DNA of 20,000 bases, taken from Moniliella sp. 'wahieum' (taxonomy: Eukaryota). Under the pieces are notes generated by a model. That model was not told where the DNA came from. It did no database searches and was given only the letters and a program-made list of their open reading frames with translations. Shown in pieces: positions 1 through 16,583 of the stretch; position 1 is the stretch's first letter; every line of letters starts with the position of its first letter. The stretch spans positions 917,260 through 937,259 of the forward strand of contig RSEE01000015.1 in the NCBI GenBank assembly GCA_003971905.1. The letters are read 5' to 3'. Both the position numbers and the translations under genes were made by a program.

Positions 1-536
1 GAGGGTACGTTCTCTCCTCTGGCACTCTCTCCTGGCCAAATTACCTACTAACCTATTTTTACCCTGTAGCGGTCATCCTCAACGAACACCTGACCGAAGC
101 CTTGCGGCGCTTGCGCACCGAGTCGTCGGAAAACAACGTTGATCGCCGGCTCGTAACCAACCTGTTCTCCAATTCCTCAGCCCCCCCCGACGGGAAGCGG
201 TTCGAAATGCTCAACGTCATGGCATCTGTCCTGGGCTGGACCGATGAGGAACGCGAAACGGCCGGGATAGCACGGCGGGGTCACAACCTCCCACCGCCGG
301 GTAAGCGCCAGGGCCCTCAACGTGCCTCGGAGGACGAGCCATCGGATGCACACAATGAGGTATGTTTTCTTTCTCCCCCTCCATCATATGCGCATCATGG
401 CGACGCAGGTGGTTTTCGGTGCTTAGTGTTGACCCTGCCTCTCTCAGTCTTTACTCGCATGTTTGTCCAGTTCTTGCTACGCGAAGCGGATAGCGGTTCT
501 GCGCCCAACGGCAAGAATACACCAGAAAAGGCATAG
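1..536 (+). CDS. RUD3: 3' part of a GRAB-domain golgin (Rud3/GMAP-210-like); 5' part lies outside the window; exons <1-4, 70-359, 448-536
   Basis: Spliced translation gives E-AVILNEHLTEALRRLRTESSENNVDRRLVTNLF(LQFLS)..DGKRFEMLNVMASVLGWTDEERETAGI, then after intron 2 S(F)TRMFVQFLLREA. These match the GRAB domain and the C-terminal GA1-type motif of fungal Rud3-family golgins. Stop TAG at 534-536. A compensating frameshift pair near 165-190 and one missing T near 450 are needed. Confidence 0.85.
   Translation, partial: GYVLSSGTLSWPNYLLTYFYPVAVILNEHLTEALRRLRTESSENNVDRRLVTNLFSNSSAPPDGKRFEMLNVMASVLGWTDEERETAGIARRGHNLPPPGKRQGPQRASEDEPSDAHNEVCFLSPPPSYAHHGDAGGFRCLVLTLPLSVFTRMFVQFLLREADSGSAPNGKNTPEKA
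5..69 (+). other. Spliceosomal intron in the Rud3-like gene
   Basis: GTACGT donor at 5, TACTAAC branch point at 46-52, TAG acceptor ending at 69. Removal gives in-frame GAG-G|CG-GTC-ATC (E-A-V-I). Confidence 0.9.
360..447 (+). other. Spliceosomal intron in the Rud3-like gene
   Basis: GTATGT donor at 360, pyrimidine-rich interior, TTGAC branch-like site near 429-433, CTCTCAG acceptor ending at 447. Removal joins HNE to the S(F)TRMFVQFLL motif. Confidence 0.8.
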
Positions 537-1599: not shown

Positions 1600-4382
1600 A
1601 TGGAACAACCCTCCCTTAGTGCCTGGTCGCGACCGCCAGCGAGAAAGCTCCCTTCGGCATACGAGCGCACCCATACCGCCTGCGCCGCGGCAGATCTGCC
1701 GCTCCCCGGTCTGCCTCAATGTGTGCTCCTTGCCGGCCCAGGGGCAGCAACAAGCACCGCACACGTACTACATGCTCTCGGGGGCAGCCCCCTTGCACCC
1801 CTGATATCTCCTCAAATGCCCACCATGTATGGTTTTCACCGCTTGCCGACAACACCATTTTGGTCGGAAGATGCAACTGCTCGTCCTCTGTTGGTTCGTT
1901 TGCAGCCATCTGAAGATACGTCCATGGCTCCGCGTCTGTCCTTACTGGCGTCGACTCGATGGAGCCAGACCAAGTGTGGGCGCGCATCAAGGCGGAGCGC
2001 TCGCATCCTCCACAGGAAGGCGACCCTCTAGCTGCCTCACCTTATGCGCCCCCGACTTGCCTCATCTGCAGCTGGTCGAGCTCCCTGCCCTAATTGTTCC
2101 GGACGAGCAGGCCTCTTCTCTCCAGCTACGACGGTCGCGTCCGGCAACGTTGGAAGCAAGGTGTCTCCTGAAGATCTGGTGGCGCAAGCTCGTCGTTCTT
2201 TGGCCTTGTCGTACGCTTCGGAGCCGGATGCAGTTCTTTGCGTTGTTTTATCCCCATGGGAGCGGGCCGAGACTAGTCCCGCCGTCCAGTTGGCTCTCGA
2301 AGTGGACCCAAAGGGGGACAGAACGGTTGGAGTGATCCCCTTTGCCATGTCGTCTGCAGGGAGATACAACCTTCCGTTCCTGGGGCGCCCCAGTTCCCCC
2401 TTTAAGAACGGTACCATCTACCTCCCCATCGCGCAAGCGGGTGGGTTCGAATCTAGGGCGCTCCCCGGTCTGGCTACGTGGCAACAGCATTCTGTCTCCT
2501 TTTCTTCTTCTTGGCTGGGCAGAGGTGCGGCGGGCTGCGTTGGTGGATGCAGTGGCTCGGACTTTGCTGAACCGCTTTCAATGTCGGGTCCCAGCATTGA
2601 CAGCGCGATTGAGCGCGTTGGTAGCTCAGACGCAGCACCAACTTGCGCGGGATGCCCCCTCCCCCGTCTCTGCCTGTTGACACGTTTCGACGGCCGCGCA
2701 CGCAGGATGAAGAAGAGAGGACACTGGTTGGATCAGACTGGGACAACGCTAAGGTGGGGAAAGCGTCCCCACCCCATTCACCTTCTTTATCCATTGCCCC
2801 TTCCCTTACTCCTTCCGGGGCAACTGCCTCTGTTGTAGGCCCCACAAGGGTGAGTGCCTCATCCCCAATCGGATCAGAGGCAGCTCAACTGGTGCTCTCT
2901 CTCACAACCCAGTTTGCTTCGGATGTGGTGGCCTGCATTGAGGGGGAAGGCGGGGCCAGGATCTATCGTACTTTTGTCGACTCTTTCCATCAAGCTCTTC
3001 TTGATACCATTCCTTCCCCTCATCTTCAGCAGTGCGACGAGGGGCTGCCTCCTGGCAACCCCGACCCTGAGTGGGACGAAGCGTCGGGGCTATCCACCCG
3101 GACCATTCGTACCGCCTTGCGTAACGCTGCCGGTCCAAGACCGGGGCTCTTTGTCCCAGACCAAGCATTCCAATTGCTCGTCAAGCCACAACTGCATCGC
3201 CTCCACTTCCCGGCTCAACAATGTGTGGAAAGTGTGTTTGAGGAATTGGTTCGCATTGCTCACGTCTCGGCTCGACCCGTACGTCATTCCGCTATACTAC
3301 CCCCGCACTGAACAAAAAAACGTACTAACCCCCGTGTCCCAGGAGCTTGCTCGCTTTCCTCATCTACGCACCGCGCTAACGGATCGCGTTGACCTAATGC
3401 TGACAGAACGACGAGGGCCTACAGCCGAGTACATTAGGAACCTCGTCGACCTCCATTCCGCATATATCAAGGTTGACCATCCTGCTTTCGTTCGCGCGAG
3501 AGAAGCGATTTTTCATCCTCCTTTGCCCCACCTGTTAAGCCCGCGTCCAAACCCAACCTTACCCACACCACAAACCGCAGCCCGACCATGACGCCCCCTC
3601 GCCCTTCTGTACAGGAGGAAGAAGGCCACCCTCCCCTTTCCCGTGCCCAAACCGTGCCTACGATCCCCGTGTCCCCTCTGATCGGTGCCTTCCGATGGAG
3701 GCGAACGCCCACACCCACTCCGCCTGCCAAGCCGACGCCTACCAAGGCACGAACACGGTCCAGCACCCAGAGTCTCTCCTCTCCTCCCATCCCTCCTGTG
3801 TCTGGTCATCACCGCGGGGCGACAGTGGCGCCGTGCCGACGGTGATTCTTCCGCCTCCAGCTGGGTCCGCTCCGCAGCTGCTCCCGCCCCCCCCACCGTC
3901 CGAAGGATTTTTCTCTCGCTTCTTGGGGGGCAGCGAGGACCGGCATCGGCCGTCCTCGGTGCAGGACGAAGCACGCTCGTCCTCCCCTGGCCCTGCTGCA
4001 CCCCAAGGTTCAATCGAGTCGGAAAGCGTGCCAGCCCAAGCGGAGAAGGTGCAGCCTAGTCGAAGGAAGAGTTGGTGCGCGCGTTAGTCTTGGCTTACCT
4101 AGCCCTGGCACGGGAGGTGGTGGAGGACACGGTGCCCAAGGCCATCATGCACCTTCTTGTCCACGCGGCCACAGAGGCGATGGAGACGCGGTTGGTGCAG
4201 GCGCTGTACTGTGCTTCGCCAGAGCGAGAGGTGCCGCTCCTCCATCCGGCCTCGTTGGGCCGTTTGCTGGAGGAGGACGAAGCGGCAGTACAGCGCGCAT
4301 CGAGGCGCGTGCCCGGCTGGAGACCTACCAGCACGCGCTCCAGCAGATTGCGCGTGAACTAATATGGGGGGCAGGAGGCTGA
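1600..4382 (+). CDS. Dynamin-related protein, Dnm1/Drp1-like paralog with degenerate GTPase motifs (G domain, stalk, insert B, GED); one intron 3279-3342; multiple frameshifts
   Basis: Colinear dynamin blocks across frames: LPQCVLL..VLHALGG (P-loop region), ATARPLLVRL (cf. TRRPLVLQL), LTLCAPDLPHLQLVELPAL (cf. LTLVDLPGL), ALEVDPKGDRTVGVI, VARTLLNRFQCRVPALTARLSALVAQTQHQL. Stalk: QFASDVVACIEG..GGARIY..IRTALRNAAGPRPGLFVPDQAFQLLVKPQL..CVESVFEELVRIAH, then ELARFPHL..ERRGPTAEY..AYIKVDHPAF. GED: LVRALVLAYL..VEDTVPKAIMHLLV..RLVQALY..LLEEDE. ATG at 1600. After a final frameshift the frame ARLETYQHALQQIARELIWGAGG ends at TGA 4380-4382. Confidence 0.9.
3279..3342 (+). other. Spliceosomal intron in the dynamin-like gene
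   Basis: GTACGT donor at 3279, TACTAAC at 3323-3329, CAG acceptor ending at 3342. Removal joins HVSARP to ELARFPHL in frame, as expected for the Dnm1 stalk. Confidence 0.92.
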
Positions 4383-5059
4383 TAAGATTACGAGATCTAA
4401 GATCTAAGGTCTGAGAGGGCTGTGGCAGCGATCCATACTTTTTCTCATCGTGGCAGGATGGTCTTGAGGCCTTTTTTGGCAAGGGAGCGATTCGATCACG
4501 TACACGAAATCACAGGCATCACAGCGTGTCCCATACGTGCATTTGAAATTTGATGCCAATTTGAGGGTGGCCGACGTGGCTGTGTGACATGTGATGGATG
4601 ATGGATGCGTGATGGCGGCTCCGTGCTGGCACTCGGATGCGTGGCGGAGCTCCATGGACGGGACCGTTCTGCTGGCCCGCAGTTCCTGATCGTCTGATCT
4701 GCGTGGGATGCGCCGGCGGCACGTGAGCGTGGGCGGTGCGGTGTGCTGGCGCGGTGCGAGTGTTGAATGTTGGACTTACGCGAGTGCGCGGGCGGCGTGT
4801 GTGTGTGCTGCGCATCTTCGGACTCAGTACGCAGTCTCAGTACTCAGCCCGAGTTGCGCGCTGCGCCGAGCACGAGTACGCGAAGTGCTTGCTCAGGCGG
4901 AGCCCCAGGCGTGTCTACTCCGTGGCAGCTATGCGCCCCCCCTGCCCTTCCAGCCTGCGCACGCTGAGCCCCCGCCGCCCACGCCCGCTGGCGCCCCCTC
5001 CGCTTTGGCGCTGCGCTGCCGCTCTCTTCCTTGCCTCCACCCCCCCTTCTCTGTTCGCC

Positions 5060-7266
5060 ATGGGTCCCTGGCGGCGTGCTGTTACCGCCCTGGCCCTGGC
5101 CATCGCCGCTGCCTCCTCCACCCCCGCCCTCGCCACCACCTCCAGCGTCAGCCTCTCGCCCGCCCTCAATGCCAGCAACGCCGGCTCCACCCTGTCCCAG
5201 ACGCTCCTCCCCTCCTTTGCCGGTGTGGGCATCGAACCAAGCAACGTGCTGGCCTTCACGGGCACCGACACGGTCACGTCACCCCTTACATACCAACTCC
5301 TCAGCAACCTCGGCGCATACACCGGCGTCCCCCGCATCTGCGTCTCGGCGGCAACACTGGCGACAACATGCTCTATGACGACGTGGCTTCCACCTCCGCC
5401 ACGCTTCAGACCAATGCCAGTGGCAGTACGACGTCACGCTGGTACTACGGAAATGGTCTCTTGGCCGCCGTTGACCGGTTGCCCGCCGGCACCCCCATCA
5501 CATTTGGCCTCAACTTGGCCTACAATGGATCCGATGCCATCCCGCGCATTGTAGAGCAGGCCGCGGCCGTGTTGGACAATCTGCACAATGTCAAAATTGC
5601 CGGTTTTGAGGTGGGCAACGAACCGGACTTGTACGTCACCAACCAGTACCGCCCCGCTGGCTACACCGAGCAAACTATGGGGCAGAGTGGATTGCCCGTG
5701 TCCAGGCGATCCACACGCAGGTCCTTGCTCCGCGCAACAAGTCCTCCAATTTCTTTGAGGCTGCGGTCACTGCCACTACGGCCGACAAAACGGTCACCCT
5801 ACCGCATTTCGAACTTGGTACAGGACACCAATGGCGTTGCCACGGGCAACGGCATCTACGTGGCTGGCCCAACCAACACTATCTTGTACGTTTTGCTTCC
5901 TGATCGGCCGAGCGCCGTACGTGCCAATCTGGGTCTGACAGATGATCTATGTACATGCAGTATTACATTGGCGTCTCCAACTTCCCCATCACGGTCGATT
6001 GGCTGCTTGACTTTCAGAATCCCAAAATCAACTTACCGAGTGGATCGGTCAAGCGCAGCAGGCCCAGCAGATCGGTCGCCCTTACTACCTCCGTGAGATG
6101 GGCTCCATCGGACCCGAGGGAATTCAAGGTATCTCGGACACGTTTGCCAACACGCTGTGGACCTTCAACTTCTTCCTCTATGCCGCTACGGTGCAGATGA
6201 ACTCGGTGCAGATGCATATGACCCAAACCTCCTATTCTTCCCCCTGGCAACCTATCTATGCCAACGGGGTTCAGCCGCATGTGCGCTCGTCTTACTATGC
6301 CTATGCTGCAATTGCCCAAGTTATCGGCGCCCAGTGCAACACCCGGGTTGCTTCGATTTCCATGGGCACGGTGCCCGCTGGCTACACTGGTCGCCTGGTC
6401 GCCTACTCTATTTACGCAGGCAACTCCCTCACTGGCTTGGTTCTAATCAACTCGCAAACGAGCAACCAAACCAACCCCACAGGCAACAGTGTCAGCTTCA
6501 CCTTCTCTCTGCCTTCCCTGGCTGGCAAGACATTTTACCTTTCTCACCTCACGGCGGCAGGCACAGATGCCACGACGAATACGACGTGGAATGGCGTGTC
6601 GTTCGAGACGCGCTCAGATGGCAAGCCCCAACCTGTGGCCAACAACACTGTTGACAGCGTCACGGCCAATTCGAGTGGTGCCGTGACAATTACCGTGCCG
6701 GACGGACGGCGGTGGTGGCCAACATTGGGTCCCAGCTCGGGTCCAACACCAGCGTCAATCAGAACAACTGTGCCGCGCTGAGTCAGACGGGCGAAGGGCC
6801 CGATGCCAATCCGTCTGGCTCCCAAGGCGGTCCCGCGCCGACGTTTAGTTCGACCCAGTCTCCAGCAAACACCATGGATTGACAACTGGCGCAATCGTCG
6901 CGATTGCCGTGGCGGTACCATGTGGCGTGTTGGCCATCTTGGCTGTCGCTGGTGTGATCGTTTCTGCCTCTGCCGCCGAAGGAGGCGCAACGGTGGTGCA
7001 GCCAGTGGCATGCACTCCAAGTTGCACGGAGGAGAGGACTGAGGGATGTGACGCTTCAAGCAGATTCGGCACTGGATCGCCCGCCTACGGCTTCCCAGCT
7101 CACCTCACATGATCTCTCTGCCCATCCCGAAACCGACTCCCAAAACAGCGCACATGGTACACCCGTCGGACTCACCCAGTTGAACGGTACTGCCCCCACT
7201 TGCCTCGATCCCTACCGCCATACCCGACCTCCACCAAGCTCCTCGTCGGACCCTCTTTCAAGATGA
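5060..7266 (+). CDS. Glycoside hydrolase family 79 (beta-glucuronidase-like) with signal peptide, GH79 C-terminal domain and C-terminal transmembrane helix; intron 5886-5960; frameshifted
   Basis: Signal-peptide-like start MGPWRRAVTALALAIAAASS at ATG 5060. GH79 motifs: SFAGVGIEPS, HLRLGGNTGD, FGLNL, FEVGNEPDLY (acid/base Glu at 5620-5622), YYLREMGS (putative nucleophile Glu at 6095-6097), GISDTFANTLWTFNFFLYAAT, VRSSYYAY. C-terminal beta domain LVAYSIY..LVLINS..LSHLTAAG..TWNGVSFE. Hydrophobic helix GAIVAIAVAVPCGVLAILAVAGVIV followed by CLCRRRRR. Probable stop TGA 7264-7266. Confidence 0.9.
5886..5960 (+). other. Spliceosomal intron in the GH79 gene
   Basis: GTACGT donor at 5886, CTGAC branch site near 5935-5939, CAG acceptor ending at 5960. 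Removal joins NQHYL to YYIGVSNFPITVDWLLDF. Confidence 0.85.
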
Positions 7267-9248: not shown

Positions 9249-12200
9249 ATGGAAACGGACACGTCCCTCTCCCCATTGTCCCCGTTAGGCAGCGTGCCCT
9301 CCTCGACCCCCCTTTCCGCCGCGAAGCAAAGCGCAAGAGCGGACCCACCACTTCCCCTTCCCCTTCTTCTGCTGTCCTCAAGAAGCCCAAACCCACTTCG
9401 AACCCCCTGGCCGATCAGTCGGTCGAGCCCGACTCGTCAACCGGCACGATCCGCCGCATGAGCGGCCGCCTCTCCACCGCCAAGGGCCGTGCGCGCAGTA
9501 CAGCCGTGCGCGTGCCCACCAAGCCCGCGTCATGGCCGCCAGCCCGCTCCCACCGGTGGAGGGGGGGCGGGGGGAAGGTCTGATGAGTCCCGCTTCTCCC
9601 TCTGGTCATCTGGGTCACTGTCACCAGCACCGCCGATTCTGTGGTCGACCAATGCTACAGTGCACGGTTGTACGCGATAACCACCAGCGCTGTCGGTTGC
9701 GGTATTGTGACTATGCGCTAAGGCCTACTATGGTCTTTCGCGCGACGCGATTGTCACGCGCGGCCGGGACCCGTCGGCGGGGGACCCGAACAAGGTTCAG
9801 CTTGGGCTGGATCCGAGCCAGATGTGCTCGGCGTCCGAGGCTGGGTTTGTTTGCTTGCCCACGGTGCACTGGGACATGCGACTGTTCGGTCTGTCGCAAC
9901 CATCGCGGCGTGCCTCCATTGGCGGCGCCTCCTTTGACGCCTACGGACAACACACACGATCTCCATTCCCATGCTCATAACTATGTGGACGGGGAGGATG
10001 CTGAGAGGAGGAAACCCTGCCGGATACCCCCGTCCGCAATGGCAAGCAAACTGCTAAAGGAAAAGCTAAGCCCAAGACTAAGGCTAAGCCTAAGAAGGCA
10101 AAGCCTCAATCGGGTACGTCCAAGTCTGCCAAGCAGACCAAACCAGTCAAGCCCAGAGCCAGGCCCAAAGTCAAGGCCAAAGCATATGCCAAGGAGGATT
10201 TGATTAGCTCGGATGAAGAGGCTTCAATCAACTTGGATGGGGACGCTTCGATCATCTTGGATGAGGACGTTTCGATGAGCTCGGATGAGGAGACTTCAAC
10301 CAGCTCGGATGAGGAGGCCCTGGCGGCCAAGATCCCGAAGAAAATGGTGGCGCCCAAGCGCAAATCGATTTCCAAATCTGCAAAGGAGAGTTTCGACCAA
10401 AGCAAAGCGAAGTGAGGACGACCATCTGATGGATGTCAATGAACAAGACATGGAAACCTCCTCTGGCTCGGAGCCACCATCGTCCCCACCCACCAGCCCA
10501 AGGAAAATCGAGGAAAACCGATGTCGTCTCTAAGGCCAAAACCGCACCCAAGAAGGCATCGGCCAAGACTAAAAAGACGACCGCTGGTAAAGGGGTCAAA
10601 TCCACAACGACCAAGGCGAAGTCCTCTGCCGCTAAGAGCAAGACGGCCGCCAAGTCTACAGACACGACCAAGGCGAACAAGAAAGCTTCGGATAAAGCGA
10701 AGGCCAAGGTTACGCCTACCAAGGATGCTAACGCAACTCCTACTAAAGGAGCCAAGGGGACGCCCACGAAGGCAATTACACCGGCCAAAGGCAGAAAATC
10801 GGCCGCCAAGGACAACTTCAACATTCGCCCCAAGCCTGTTGTTACTCCGCCGGACTTGGCGGAGGCGCCTCTTACTGAGGTGTAGGGACATCCTTGCCCG
10901 CGGCCAATCTGTTCGCTCGAATGTGGATTTACGAGGCTCTCGTTCGTTTTGATGCTGTCGCCACCCCCGCCACGATTCTCCGGCGACTCGACAGATTCGA
11001 TGACTGGGATCCGCGTATGCTCAACCTGATTCTCGAAGCGGTGACAGCTTGTCTCGCAGGCACGACGATCAAGTCGCTCCAGATTAGTGCCAAGCCGACG
11101 TTCCATGGTACGATGCAGGGTGTTATGCCCCTGGTGCGTGCGGTCCGAATCCACCACGCGCCCGACGCATCGACGCGTGGCGAGGCATGGGAAGCAGCAC
11201 GAGCGTGGCTCGAGGCGGAGCGGGTGACGATCGAGGACCTTCCTGACATTGAGCACCACTTTATCGAAGAGCCCGATGAACAGGTATCTACGCCTGCGTC
11301 CGACTTCGCTCTAGCACCAGGCACGAGCAGACGCGTCCTTACTCGTGCGGGCCGGGCCAAGCTCAACAACGTTTATATCCCTCGCAAGAGCTTGCGCGAG
11401 GCGTCGATCCACAGCGAAGATGACCTGGAAGAGGATGACGAGGACGACAAAGAGGGTGGCGAGGACGACATGGACTACGATGGTGTCCAGTCCCCAGATG
11501 CAAGCGAGGGTGAGGGTGAGGATGAAGCCACTCGATCAGAGTCAATTGTCTCTCAGACTCGCCGTGGTCGTGCTTCATGGAACAGCAAAGAAAGTCCCTC
11601 GAATGCTGACCAGACGGAGCTGAGGCGCTCCGGGCGCACCCAACGGGGCCAACCTCAATCGGGAGTGGCATCCCGCGTCCCGTCTGTTTCGGTGCCAGCT
11701 TCCCGCCAAGCCTCGGTTCTGCCCAGCAGCGCCCATGTGCCTCTCGCTCCCGGTCAGGAAGGGCCGGCTGAATCAGAGCTTTCCTCTGAATCCGCGCAAG
11801 TCACTGTGACGCCTACCCCTCCCCATCTGCACCCGTGCCCGCCCCGCCTTTCGAGCAACGCGTCGCCATTCTCGGTGCGTTGATCAACAATTTCGTTCCT
11901 CGCACAAGTGCCGTGCGCACGGATCTGATCGAGGGATGGAGCAGTGTCCTGCGTCGGAGCGAGAGGCCCGTGCGGACATGAACCGGATCAAGACGGAGCA
12001 CAAGGAGCGCATGCAGGCACTGAACGAAAAGTTGGACAGTGAGACGGTTCAGCGGTATATTGAGGAGCTGGGGCGCAAAGTACGTCTACCCACCCACTTT
12101 CCTTCTTCCTTTCCCTTTCCCTTGCTTTTTCCTGACTGTTTTCTTCACTCCAGAAATCTCGCGAGCAGCGCAACTTTGCCTGGAGCTTACTACAACGCAA

Positions 12201-13440: not shown

Positions 13441-15127
13441 TCAAGGGTTGTGATCAAAGCGCGAGCGCATCGCTTCGATGCCCTGACCCAGCGAACCAGG
13501 ACGAAGGTTGTGAGTGTCGGAAACATGGAACTTGTTGACAAACTGCTCGGCGACCTTTTGCATGCCTTGGGATGCCTGCATCATATGGTCGTAGGCCTTG
13601 TCCTGCATGGTCTGTTCCGTGACGGGTGGCTCTAGCCCGACGCCCCAAGACAGGGCCCGCTCGGTAGGGAGGAGCGTGTTGGGGTTGCTAGCCTGTTGCC
13701 AGAGGAACCTGAGACGATTCGGGTCCTCCTTGCGCAACGACTCAAACTGGGGGGAGTTGGCAGGGTCATAATTCCCACCAACGATAACCGAATAGTGAAG
13801 GGCTTCATGCCGAGCGCTACTATTGCCCTGGAGCATGTCACTCCACACAACACCCACCAAATTCGCCCGGGTCAGACGCTCAGTGTCCACCTGGCGCACC
13901 GCTTGCGCCTCGATCGCAATCCGACTCTCGTGCTCCGTCTGCTTGGCCCAGGCGTACCGTTTGTCCTGCAGTGACTTGAGATGGTCAAGGTCAATCCCCA
14001 GCAGGCCGGAAGGGTGGTCGCGCAGGTTTGCCACCATCCAAGCCAATGTGATGTCGGACAAGCCGTGGAGGGAGTAGCCTCCGCCCACGTCGGCGTGACA
14101 ACCTTGGAACCAGGTTTGCTTTAACACCTGGGTTGGAGGCGCCGTCTTTTGCTGGTACCACAGCGTCGGCAAAAAGTCCTTGCGATCTTCATGAAGAGAG
14201 AGCGCGTGAAAGGCATTCTCTACCCCAACGCCCAGACCCGGGTCAAAGAACGAGCTCAAGTGCTCGTTGCCCAACGTCTTGAACAGTCCCGGCACCCCGA
14301 GCGCGCGACTGTGTCCCACACCCTACCACCTTGATCGGCACCACCTCCACCGTAGGAGTAGGCATGACAGGGTGGGCAGGGTTGGCTTCATGTGCGAGTG
14401 CATTGAAGGAGACAGAGGCAGGTAGACTCAAGTGCTTGAGGGACTGGCCAACTTTCTCAACAAAGGTGCCCCGAATCAGATCCGACGCCACACTGGTGAC
14501 GCCCACTGTGCTGCCATTGGGCCAACGACCAGTGATGTCATGCAGCACGTAGCACGCCTTGGCAATCGTCCATGGTTCGTCTGGCCGACGATCCATGTAG
14601 GCCTGCCACAGTTCGTGGAGCCGAATGCTCTGCGATTGGTCAACACGCCTGCAAAATCAATCACCCCCGCAATACAGCGCGCCTAAAGGCACCGCGCGAG
14701 AAGCCAAACAGGAAAATCTCGTCTCCCGGCTGATAGTTGTCGTAAATGAAGCGAATGCCCTCGAGCACTTTGTCCTCCATGCCATCCCCGTTGCTCCCTG
14801 CACAATCTTTTCCTCCAAGTTGGGCGTCGCCCCCAGCCCAGACAGGTAGTGAATGATTTGCGGGCGCACATACCCGTTCGCATCAGCCCCGATCGGCGGC
14901 AGGGAGGATGCATTGGGCCAACAGGGCCACATTGGTATACCAATCTTCTTTGGCATTCTTGGATGTGGCCACGCCGTGCTGCACCTTGGTGAACACAGTC
15001 TCCCGCGACGCCCAGGTGCCATCGCACAAGACGACAAGACGAATGGGACCGCGCCGCGGCCGATTCGGGCAGAAGGAGTGCCTGGACCCGGAGGCGGATA
15101 GTTGATGGAAGGACCGGGCTGGGACAT
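13441..15127 (-). CDS. DUF2235 / Tle1-like alpha/beta hydrolase (putative phospholipase catalytic domain); frameshifted
   Basis: Family motifs in order on the minus strand: RLVVLCDGTW, YTNVALLA, QIIHYLSGLG, IYDNYQPGDEIFLFGFSRGAF (GFSRG at 14705-14691), IKVVG(V)WDTV(G)ALGVPG, AFHALSLHEDRKDFLPTLW, LKQTWFQGCHADVGGGY, LSDITLAWMV. ATG at 15127 (MSQPGPSINY); stop TGA at 13443-13441. Confidence 0.92.
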
Positions 15128-16583
15128 TGGTTTGATCGAGGGGGTGGTGGGGTGGCAACAATGGTAGTTGATGGAGAGCACCAAAAGAATAGGAGACGCT
15201 AGTGGGCATACTAAATAGTTGTGTGGAGCGCCACATATATATATCCGGTGGGAGCAACTTGTGGAGCCTCCGGGGACTTGCCGAAGCGAGTTTCGTGTGA
15301 CAGGTCAAGCGTCTGCTTCGGTGGTGGGATCACGCGCACGCGTGAAAGGACGGGGCGTTGTGAGCGACAGCAAAGCCCGTCGCCTTCTTCCTTTGCTGCC
15401 AAAAAGCAGATTATGTACATGTGCGTACCACTGTCTGAACCTTGGGGTCCTTTTCCTCTCCGGGGGCGCGCTGCCCTCGCCCCCCCCACGCCCTCAAAAG
15501 GTCACGCGCGCCGTGCCCGCTTGGGAAAGAACCATGACCCATGATTGTGCGTCAGCTGACACGTTCTCCCCCCCATGTTCCTCCGATATATTACCCCTGA
15601 GCCTGATGCCTGGGTCTGACATGATGTAGCTTAGCCAGGAGTATAGTCGAGCGATACAAGGCAGCGCCATATGAAGCTTGAAGCTTTTCATTCGATCGTC
15701 TCCACATTGATGGCAATCATGCAATGCATCTGATCATGCACCTGATCTGGTACGGATTGGCTAATCGCGCTGATCTAGCTAGTTCCCACCGCTCCCCCTC
15801 CACCGGGAGAGGGCCGCAGCAAAGACGCAGCTACCCAGTCAGCCACAGATCGAAAAGCGCACAACGCGCACGCTCCTGCGGCCACTTTCATATAACCCAA
15901 GGCCCTGGACAAGCAGGGTTGCATTTGGTTTGGGCGTCACGCGTCACGCATCACATACCATGTCATTAATGCCATTAATGCCATTTCGGCTCCCCTTACC
16001 GTGGGCCTCCGGTGGGCGCTGGGCACTCGCCCCGGGTTCACCATCCGATGGCCGGCAGCACCCACGTTTGTCCCCACACCGTGTCTCCCACGGTCCACGC
16101 GCTTCGGTTGAACGTTGACATGCATGTGGCATTTGAAGCTGAAGTTCAAGCTTGAAGGCACGGGCGAGCGGTGCCGGTGCCGCGATGACGGGGCCGTCCA
16201 ATAATGCATGCGGATGCGTTACTGTCATCTGCTGGCACCAGCACCACTGCTCCGTTCTCTGTCCTGCTCGTAGGAAACCTGTGTGATGCATGACGTATGT
16301 GGTGGTTCGCACGCTCAGTAACGTTCTTGTCGTCGTTGGCAACCAAAATGCGCCTGCTACGTTGCCCGCTTCTCTCCTCCGCACAGAAGTCGGGGCAACG
16401 TCAGATCTCTGAAAGGACGCACGCAGCTGCGAGCTTTTATACCCCAGCCACCGCTCTCCCAGCACGGCACGCGTTACGCGTCACACACATGCACACCGCA
16501 CTCTATAGATAAAAAGATAGGCACAACAAGCGAGGCAGACAGAGGGGAAGATACAAGTGAAGCCCAAAAGACTTCTATAGGCT

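Follow-up and report, generated by a model that had tools for sequence, protein, structure and literature searches.

A very divergent Dnm1-like gene with degenerate GTPase motifs and a better conserved stalk in Moniliella sp. 'wahieum': a candidate pseudo-GTPase

The stretch of DNA analysed here, referred to as the window, comprises 20,000 nucleotides of the genome of Moniliella sp. 'wahieum' (contig RSEE01000015.1, positions 917,260 to 937,259), and all coordinates are given in its own numbering. This 20-kilobase (kb) window is GC-rich fungal DNA (59% GC), and its source is a smut-related fungus. Its plus strand holds what looks like an additional, highly divergent copy of the gene for the mitochondrial-division dynamin, here called the Dnm1-like gene, which extends from an ATG at 1600 to a TGA at 4380-4382 (1600-4382) and is made up of 11 frame segments with one intron and about 900 codons. 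In this gene the loops that bear three of the GTPase motifs are replaced and the stalk is much better kept than the GTPase (G) domain, a combination that may mark a pseudo-GTPase of the Dnm1/Drp1 type.

The gene was delineated using a purpose-written protein-to-DNA aligner that allows frameshifts and introns, with the Dnm1 protein of Panus rudis (P0138; KAI0070705.1) as the reference. This comparison gave an end-to-end dynamin alignment in which 249 of 646 positions are identical (38.5%). Nine other basidiomycete Dnm1 proteins, eight of them from Ustilaginomycotina, served as further frameshift-aware references; against the ten proteins together the identity is 36-39%, with the divergence distributed along the whole gene. 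The explicit path through the gene contains 900 codons and no in-frame stop, and changes frame nine times (near 1961, 2035, 2131-2193, 2521, 2660, 3588, 3830, 4062 and 4300). It is interrupted by one intron of 64 nucleotides (3279-3342; GTACGT ... TACTAAC ... CAG), for which 10/10 reference alignments gave the same placement. The original prediction, which was made from the DNA letters without database searches, described a full-length protein with intact domain architecture. Neither description holds for the sequence as assembled, in which the open reading frame (ORF) is broken by the nine frame changes and the intron, and in which the motifs discussed below are spread over two frames.

The P-loop lysine, the Asp and Gly of the DxxG motif and the TKxD box are needed by dynamins to bind and to hydrolyse GTP. 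In the P-loop region the Dnm1-like gene reads LPQCVLLAGPGAATSTAHVLH in frame 1 (start position modulo 3 equal to 1; 1711-1773, plus strand), and the equivalent of the P-loop itself (G1; 1735-1758) is GPGAATST, without Gly-Lys-Ser/Thr. The G3 equivalent (2078-2089, frame 2) is ELPA instead of DLPG and the G4 equivalent (2338-2349, frame 1) is PFAM instead of TKxD. A regular-expression scan of all three plus-strand frames across 1500-2600 gave no match to GK[ST], [NT]KxD or D[LIVMA]PG, so that the degeneracy of G1, G3 and G4 claimed by the original prediction is confirmed. Its additional statement, that these are substitutions rather than frameshift noise, is not confirmed, given the occurrence of the motifs in two frames and the nine frame changes. 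For ELPA, it is two point changes, and no insertion or deletion, that separate the sequence from one coding for DLPG. We note that the P-loop stretch does contain an AAG (Lys) codon at 1752-1754 of the plus strand, which is out of frame and belongs to the frame 0 reading GSNKH. With one-base assembly errors an atypical loop of the GxxxxNKH type is conceivable, yet such a loop would still not be GK[ST]. The Thr of DATARPL (1876-1878, frame 1) aligns with the G2 switch I Thr of dynamins, but does so after a 20-residue insertion: about 20 extra codons (ISPQMPTMYGFHRLPTTPFW; 1804-1863) are found in the switch I region just upstream of this G2-like Thr. A candidate 44-nucleotide intron at 1827-1870 that would remove the insertion was rejected as it joins out of frame, and the stretch is for that reason read as an insertion.

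Strand-like segments of the G domain (QCVLLAG, LQLVELPA, VLCVV and TVGVI) are still alignable with those of canonical dynamins and the loops bearing G1, G3 and G4 are replaced, which would be the usual pattern for a pseudoenzyme that keeps its fold. Insertions in this domain occur in the switch I region and after G3. The longest piece in a single frame (2044-2835) scores 16.4 bits (E = 0.0094) against Dynamin_N (PF00350), which is below the cut-off of 27 in a test limited by the frame breaks. Comparison of the G-domain piece with the Vps1 and Drp1 G domains of the Protein Data Bank (PDB) using phmmer gave weak matches (E = 6e-5 to 1e-3), in which GVIPF-AM is paired with GVLTKVDL. A search of the ESM Atlas with the G-domain remnant gave no usable match. 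On these alignments we judge the homology of the region to dynamin G domains to be weak but real.

The remainder of the gene is more readily recognized. A Ser/Pro-rich stretch at 2666-2879, which is absent from canonical Dnm1, is probably a coding insertion because frame 0 is open through it. The aligner proposed instead an 'intron' of 183-214 nucleotides from 2666 or 2684 to 2848, 2854 or 2879, which we rejected on account of its poor GTCTCT donor and the open frame. The first part of the middle (stalk) domain (2880-3278) contains GGARIY and RNAAGPRPGLFVP and matches Dynamin_M (PF01031) with 76.3 bits (E = 3e-21). The second part, which runs into the start of the variable region (3343-3585; ELARFPHL ... 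YIKVDHPAF), matches the same family with 40.2 bits (E = 3.1e-10). An Insert-B-like low-complexity Pro/Ser region follows (3588-4060), in which the frame changes are poorly placed; the sequence EGFFSRFLGG within it (3902-3931, plus strand) corresponds to the conserved FLNYFFG-like motif. The GED (4063-4379; VPKAIMHLLV ..., with a frame change near 4300) matches PF02212 with 44.1 bits (E = 2.5e-11). The Dynamin_M and GED scores all exceed the Pfam cut-offs. The predicted protein ends in ...ARELIWGAGG and has no hydrophobic tail.

The closest PDB match of the middle piece is human DRP1 (PDB entry 5wp9; E = 5.2e-15). No Mx chain is present among the 14 PDB matches of this piece, and membership of the fungal Mx-like family MxF was rejected. 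A maximum-likelihood tree was built on the middle domain and GED only, with Vps1 as the outgroup. In this tree the Dnm1-like gene lies within the Dikarya Dnm1 clade, with a Shimodaira-Hasegawa-like approximate likelihood-ratio test (SH-aLRT) value of 93, and within fungal Dnm1 (99), apart from Vps1. It falls outside the Ustilaginomycotina Dnm1 clade (SH-aLRT 97), subject to the caveat of a long branch: the terminal branch of the gene measures 6.77 compared with a median of 0.3, and the placement of so long a row is unsure. Membership of the Vps1 family was rejected, as the clade containing the gene has Vps1 as its outgroup and as the middle-domain identity between Vps1 and Dnm1 is 38%, compared with 52% for the gene. 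Judged by its sequence, the gene is of the Dnm1/Drp1 type; the Dynamin_M and GED matches, the DRP1 structure and the position in the tree all agree with the Dnm1-like identity first proposed for it.

To judge the frame breaks we used the neighbouring gene for a GH79 family glycoside hydrolase as a control (5147-7052, plus strand). Its alignment with its best relative, P0005, which is encoded on a 21-kb contig, shows 446 identical positions out of 654 (68%), includes long near-identical blocks, and requires 11 frame corrections and one 75-nucleotide intron. One-base deletions account for nine of these corrections and two-base skips for the other two, and the majority lie next to short runs of a base (for example CCCCC, AAAA or CCC). 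The resulting frameshift rate is 5.8 per kb (11 in 1.9 kb) for GH79, compared with 3.3 per kb (nine in 2.7 kb) for the Dnm1-like gene, in which seven of the nine frame changes are of the minus-one type in a tally of frame numbers. Since the rate in the Dnm1-like gene is not above that of the control, its frame breaks look like one-base deletion errors of the assembly, and as such would provide no evidence on pseudogene status or decay. The conservation of GH79 in blocks furthermore indicates that the substitution error is low, and therefore that the divergence of the Dnm1-like gene is real. We also note that ORF-based annotation of the Moniliella assembly will fragment genes, given the frequent one-base deletions. 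The draft sequence is too error-rich to prove that the Dnm1-like gene is intact and, given these frameshift errors, the earlier advice to polish the locus was apt.

Conservation differs strongly between the head and the stalk of the predicted protein. The middle domain shares 52% identity with Panus Dnm1, the values for Drp1 from Allomyces, Amoebidium and Rhodelphis being 47-53%. In contrast, the G domain shares only 32% identity with Panus Dnm1, compared with 64-75% for the same three Drp1 proteins and two more full-length dynamins; an N-terminally truncated fragment (P0001) has 59%. When positions constant in six canonical dynamins were taken as invariant, 33 of 38 were found to be kept in the middle domain compared with 35 of 96 in the G domain, where 61 of the 96 have changed (Fisher p = 9e-8). 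A generous count, in which a position was scored as kept if any one of ten alternative alignments to an 18-protein panel gave a match, yielded 39 of 47 and 50 of 85, respectively (p = 0.006). The invariant positions kept in the stalk include GGAR, RNxxGPRPxLFVP and HPxF. As uniform neutral decay predicts equal loss in both regions, the stalk appears to have been constrained while the head was released, and purifying selection on the stalk (middle domain and GED) is suggested. A difference of this kind would be expected of a paralogue that has been retained with a catalytically dead head.

Simulation and splice signals bear on the same question. Neutral evolution of a Dnm1 G domain to 33% identity introduced a mean of 5.2 stops, and only two of 100 runs remained free of them. 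The fewest frame switches that keep the Dnm1-like gene open number six in the sense direction, compared with 12 in the antisense direction; among 200 shuffled sequences the mean was 16.3 and the minimum 9. At simulated neutral rates of 0.33 and 0.60 substitutions per site, all 16 splice-signal positions would escape change with a probability of 0.005 and 7e-5, respectively. The premature stops, lost splice signals, absence of introns and uniform decay that characterize processed or decaying pseudogenes are not seen in the Dnm1-like gene. Repeat-induced point (RIP-type) mutation was rejected as the cause of the divergence, since the GC content by codon position is 0.41-0.79, around the 0.60 of the flanks, with no AT enrichment. 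Of the earlier proposal that the locus holds a catalytically dead, retained paralogue, the Dnm1 type, the loss of the motifs and the higher conservation of the stalk than of the G domain have stood, whereas the intact architecture has not, and the orthologues with the same losses that it advised looking for were not found in the collections searched.

In a HMMER search with the middle domain, which covered 1.84 billion representative proteins exhaustively, 669 matches reached E <= 0.001 and none reached E <= 1e-30, the best value being 9.8e-19. Ten of the 150 matches listed, inspected by name, and seven proteins inspected by sequence are ordinary Dnm1/Drp1 proteins, the sources of which include Panus, Allomyces, Amoebidium and Rhodelphis.

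Several observations weigh against a selected gene and are gathered here. No orthologue with the same motif losses was found in any collection searched. Among the 2971 candidates of a word-index protein search, the middle domain had three distant matches, a metagenome scan with the G-domain piece gave 454 pattern matches and no relatives, and a scan with the middle piece gave a single locus of 35% identity. This locus (L001) encodes a canonical dynamin of AT-rich composition, in which DTPG and TKLD are present, and is uninformative on the intron position. As proteins with GH79 domains 64-71% identical to that of the window are present in the protein collection, an orthologue of the Dnm1-like gene might be expected there, and its absence speaks to some degree against a conserved family. 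In the tally of frame numbers, two of the nine frame changes depart from the simple minus-one type. The stop-free path has been downgraded to supportive only, because, the DNA being GC-rich, 11% of 138 stretches of equal length from the window also need six or fewer frame switches. The aligner penalizes stops and can evade them by switching frame, and it maximizes the BLOSUM score, which biases the comparison of conservative replacements made alongside the simulation. Finally, third codon positions are less GC-rich in the G domain (0.61) and the middle domain (0.55) than in GH79 (0.73), with the GED at 0.79. The finding is also one that rests on a single locus in an error-rich assembly.

Some of these points would fit a dead duplicate, that is, an untranscribed or untranslated DNM1 pseudogene with at most an earlier pseudo-GTPase phase. 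The gene is an orphan, without an orthologue in the collections searched; the very long terminal branch, the nine frame breaks as assembled with two of them not minus-one, the third-position GC content weaker than in the GH79 neighbour and the large low-complexity insertions also point in this direction. However, uniform neutral decay is contradicted by the unequal retention of invariant positions (33 of 38 in the middle domain, 35 of 96 in the G domain). No stop is found in 900 codons, where the simulation expects about five in the G domain alone. The splice signals are at consensus, and the frameshift rate does not exceed that of the clearly conserved neighbour. We consider a dead duplicate less likely than the selected gene proposed below, and the main rival to it; if it is one, the locus shows only that uncorrected one-base deletions can make conserved genes look broken.

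We think it considerably less plausible that the gene is the sole Dnm1 orthologue of the organism, degenerating as the lineage gives up Dnm1-driven fission. Loss of Dnm1 is on record: in the part available, a survey of representative fungi describes Dnm1 as single-copy in those sampled, except for one duplication and two losses (PMC11789081). Against this reading, the Ustilaginomycotina Dnm1 proteins that we retrieved are all canonical and mutually 64-85% identical, and the Dnm1-like gene lies outside their clade, with the reservation on its long branch made above. In Pseudozyma flocculosa, moreover, DNM1 (PFL1_05418) does not lie beside the GH79 gene (PFL1_00500), which is a weak hint that the Dnm1-like gene is a paralogue. 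As regards the origin of such a paralogue, three canonical-Dnm1 fragments from prokaryote-style metagenome gene calls (P0124, P0125 and P0132) diverge from the canonical sequence exactly at the intron site, before EL.RFP, which suggests that this site is shared with canonical Dnm1. An intron kept at a shared site suggests in turn that the gene arose by DNA-level duplication rather than as a retrocopy. We give very little credence to the remaining explanation, that sequencing or assembly errors have created the motif losses in a normal DNM1, for which the many one-base deletions and the frame 0 Lys codon within the P-loop stretch might be cited. None of the three frames contains the motifs, and it is by substitution that ELPA and PFAM depart from DLPG and TKxD. 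The conserved blocks of GH79 are nearly identical to those of its relatives and so indicate a low substitution error, and the divergence, with 36-39% identity to the ten Dnm1 references, extends over the gene from end to end.

Directly upstream of the Dnm1-like gene, a gene for a Rud3-type golgin, marked by its GRAB domain (PF10375, E = 3.2e-15), enters the window with its 3' end (3-533, plus strand). The GH79 gene downstream (4990-7050, plus strand; Glyco_hydro_79C, E = 1e-19) has its 75-nucleotide intron at 5886-5960, with a GTACGT donor, and its best named relatives are from Ustilaginomycotina, with 58-60% identity. The GH79 protein ends in a hydrophobic segment (TGAIVAIAVAVPCGVLAILAVAGV) and then an Arg-rich stretch, which together suggest a membrane-anchored form. 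At 9289-10900 (plus strand) a weak match to zf-4CXXC_R1 (E = 0.0007, below the cut-off) is followed by a long, coding-like low-complexity stretch rich in Lys, Ala, Ser and Thr. On the minus strand, 13441-15330 encodes the C-terminal half of a DUF2235/Tle1-like alpha/beta-hydrolase domain (PF09994, E = 6.3e-23, profile positions 188-286). A scan of three ORF pieces upstream gave no Pfam match to the expected N-terminal half of this domain, an outcome that the same kind of frame-breaking assembly errors could account for.

The explanation of the Dnm1-like locus that we propose, and on which our own judgement is evenly balanced, is a selected, lineage-specific and very fast-evolving gene for a Dnm1/Drp1-type pseudo-GTPase of about 900 residues that acts through its stalk. 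The locus would encode such a protein, or would have done so until very recently. The protein would have lost the Gly-Lys-Ser of the P-loop, the Asp and Gly of DxxG and the whole of the TKxD box, and would have kept the core strands of the G domain. With G1, G3 and G4 lost it should neither bind nor hydrolyse GTP, which would make it nucleotide-blind. In dynamins, stalk assembly is served by the GPRP loop and by conserved glycines in the middle domain, so that the protein should still oligomerize. Self-oligomerization, assembly with canonical Dnm1, or both could be mediated by the interfaces conserved in its stalk (GGAR, the GPRP loop and the YIxxxHPxF tip). The outcome might be a nucleotide-independent scaffold or, alternatively, a subunit that caps or poisons assembly and thereby tunes the fission of mitochondria and peroxisomes; we infer these roles of scaffold, cap or inhibitor from the kept stalk and lost motifs. 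More tentatively, and in our view less likely than not, the gene could represent the first natural pseudo-GTPase of the Dnm1/Drp1 type, a stalk-selected paralogue that co-assembles with Dnm1 as the counterpart of the dominant-negative K38A and K41A mutants and serves as a brake, cap or scaffold in fission. If the proposed explanation is true, a Dnm1 with a dead head on a conserved stalk would offer a natural means of probing how stalk assembly is separated from GTPase action in fission, and would exemplify how a pseudoenzyme paralogue can regulate.

To our knowledge, every characterized Dnm1 or Drp1 is an active GTPase. The Dnm1-like protein resembles fungal Dnm1 and animal Drp1 (Panus rudis P0138; human DRP1, PDB entries 5wp9 and 4bej) in its succession of G domain, middle domain, variable insert with an FLNYFFG-like motif and GED. 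It differs from them in the absence of G1, G3 and G4, in a G-domain identity of 32% compared with 64-75%, and in its insertions, including that at 2666-2879. The model for the proposed inhibitory role is provided by the engineered P-loop mutants Dnm1 K41A, Drp1 K38A and dynamin K44A, which co-assemble with the wild-type proteins and block fission. These mutants likewise lack the P-loop Lys, but each is a single substitution in an otherwise intact G domain, whereas the Dnm1-like gene has lost G1, G3 and G4.

Fungal Vps1 and the Mx-like MxF share the architecture of Dynamin_N, Dynamin_M and GED (PMC11789081), and MxF is reported there to be absent from Ustilago maydis. The trees of that survey were built on the GTPase domain, so that they could readily overlook a copy whose head is degenerate. 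In the portion available of a review of pseudoenzymes, Drp1 is mentioned only by way of MiD51 (PMC10211241), and our full-text literature searches gave no Drp1-type pseudo-GTPase among the matches listed. The one published fungal pseudoenzyme of the dynamin superfamily that we found is Mmc1 of Schizosaccharomyces pombe, which in the part of the report available is described as a DRP-like (dynamin-related protein-like) pseudoenzyme without GTP-binding and hydrolysis motifs, and is proposed to be a self-assembling scaffold and not a motor (PMC10592917). Mmc1 is stated to have no Pfam match, to resemble bacterial dynamin-like proteins and mitofusin, and to carry a mitochondrial presequence and a C-terminal transmembrane domain (PMC10592917). 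The Dnm1-like protein was rejected as a member of the Mmc1 type, as Dynamin_M and GED are present and its C-terminus has no hydrophobic helix. The two are alike in being fungal dynamin-superfamily proteins without GTPase motifs, but Mmc1 comes from a different, bacterial-dynamin-like branch (PMC10592917), whereas the Dnm1-like protein, with its Dynamin_M and GED matches, is of the Dnm1 type.

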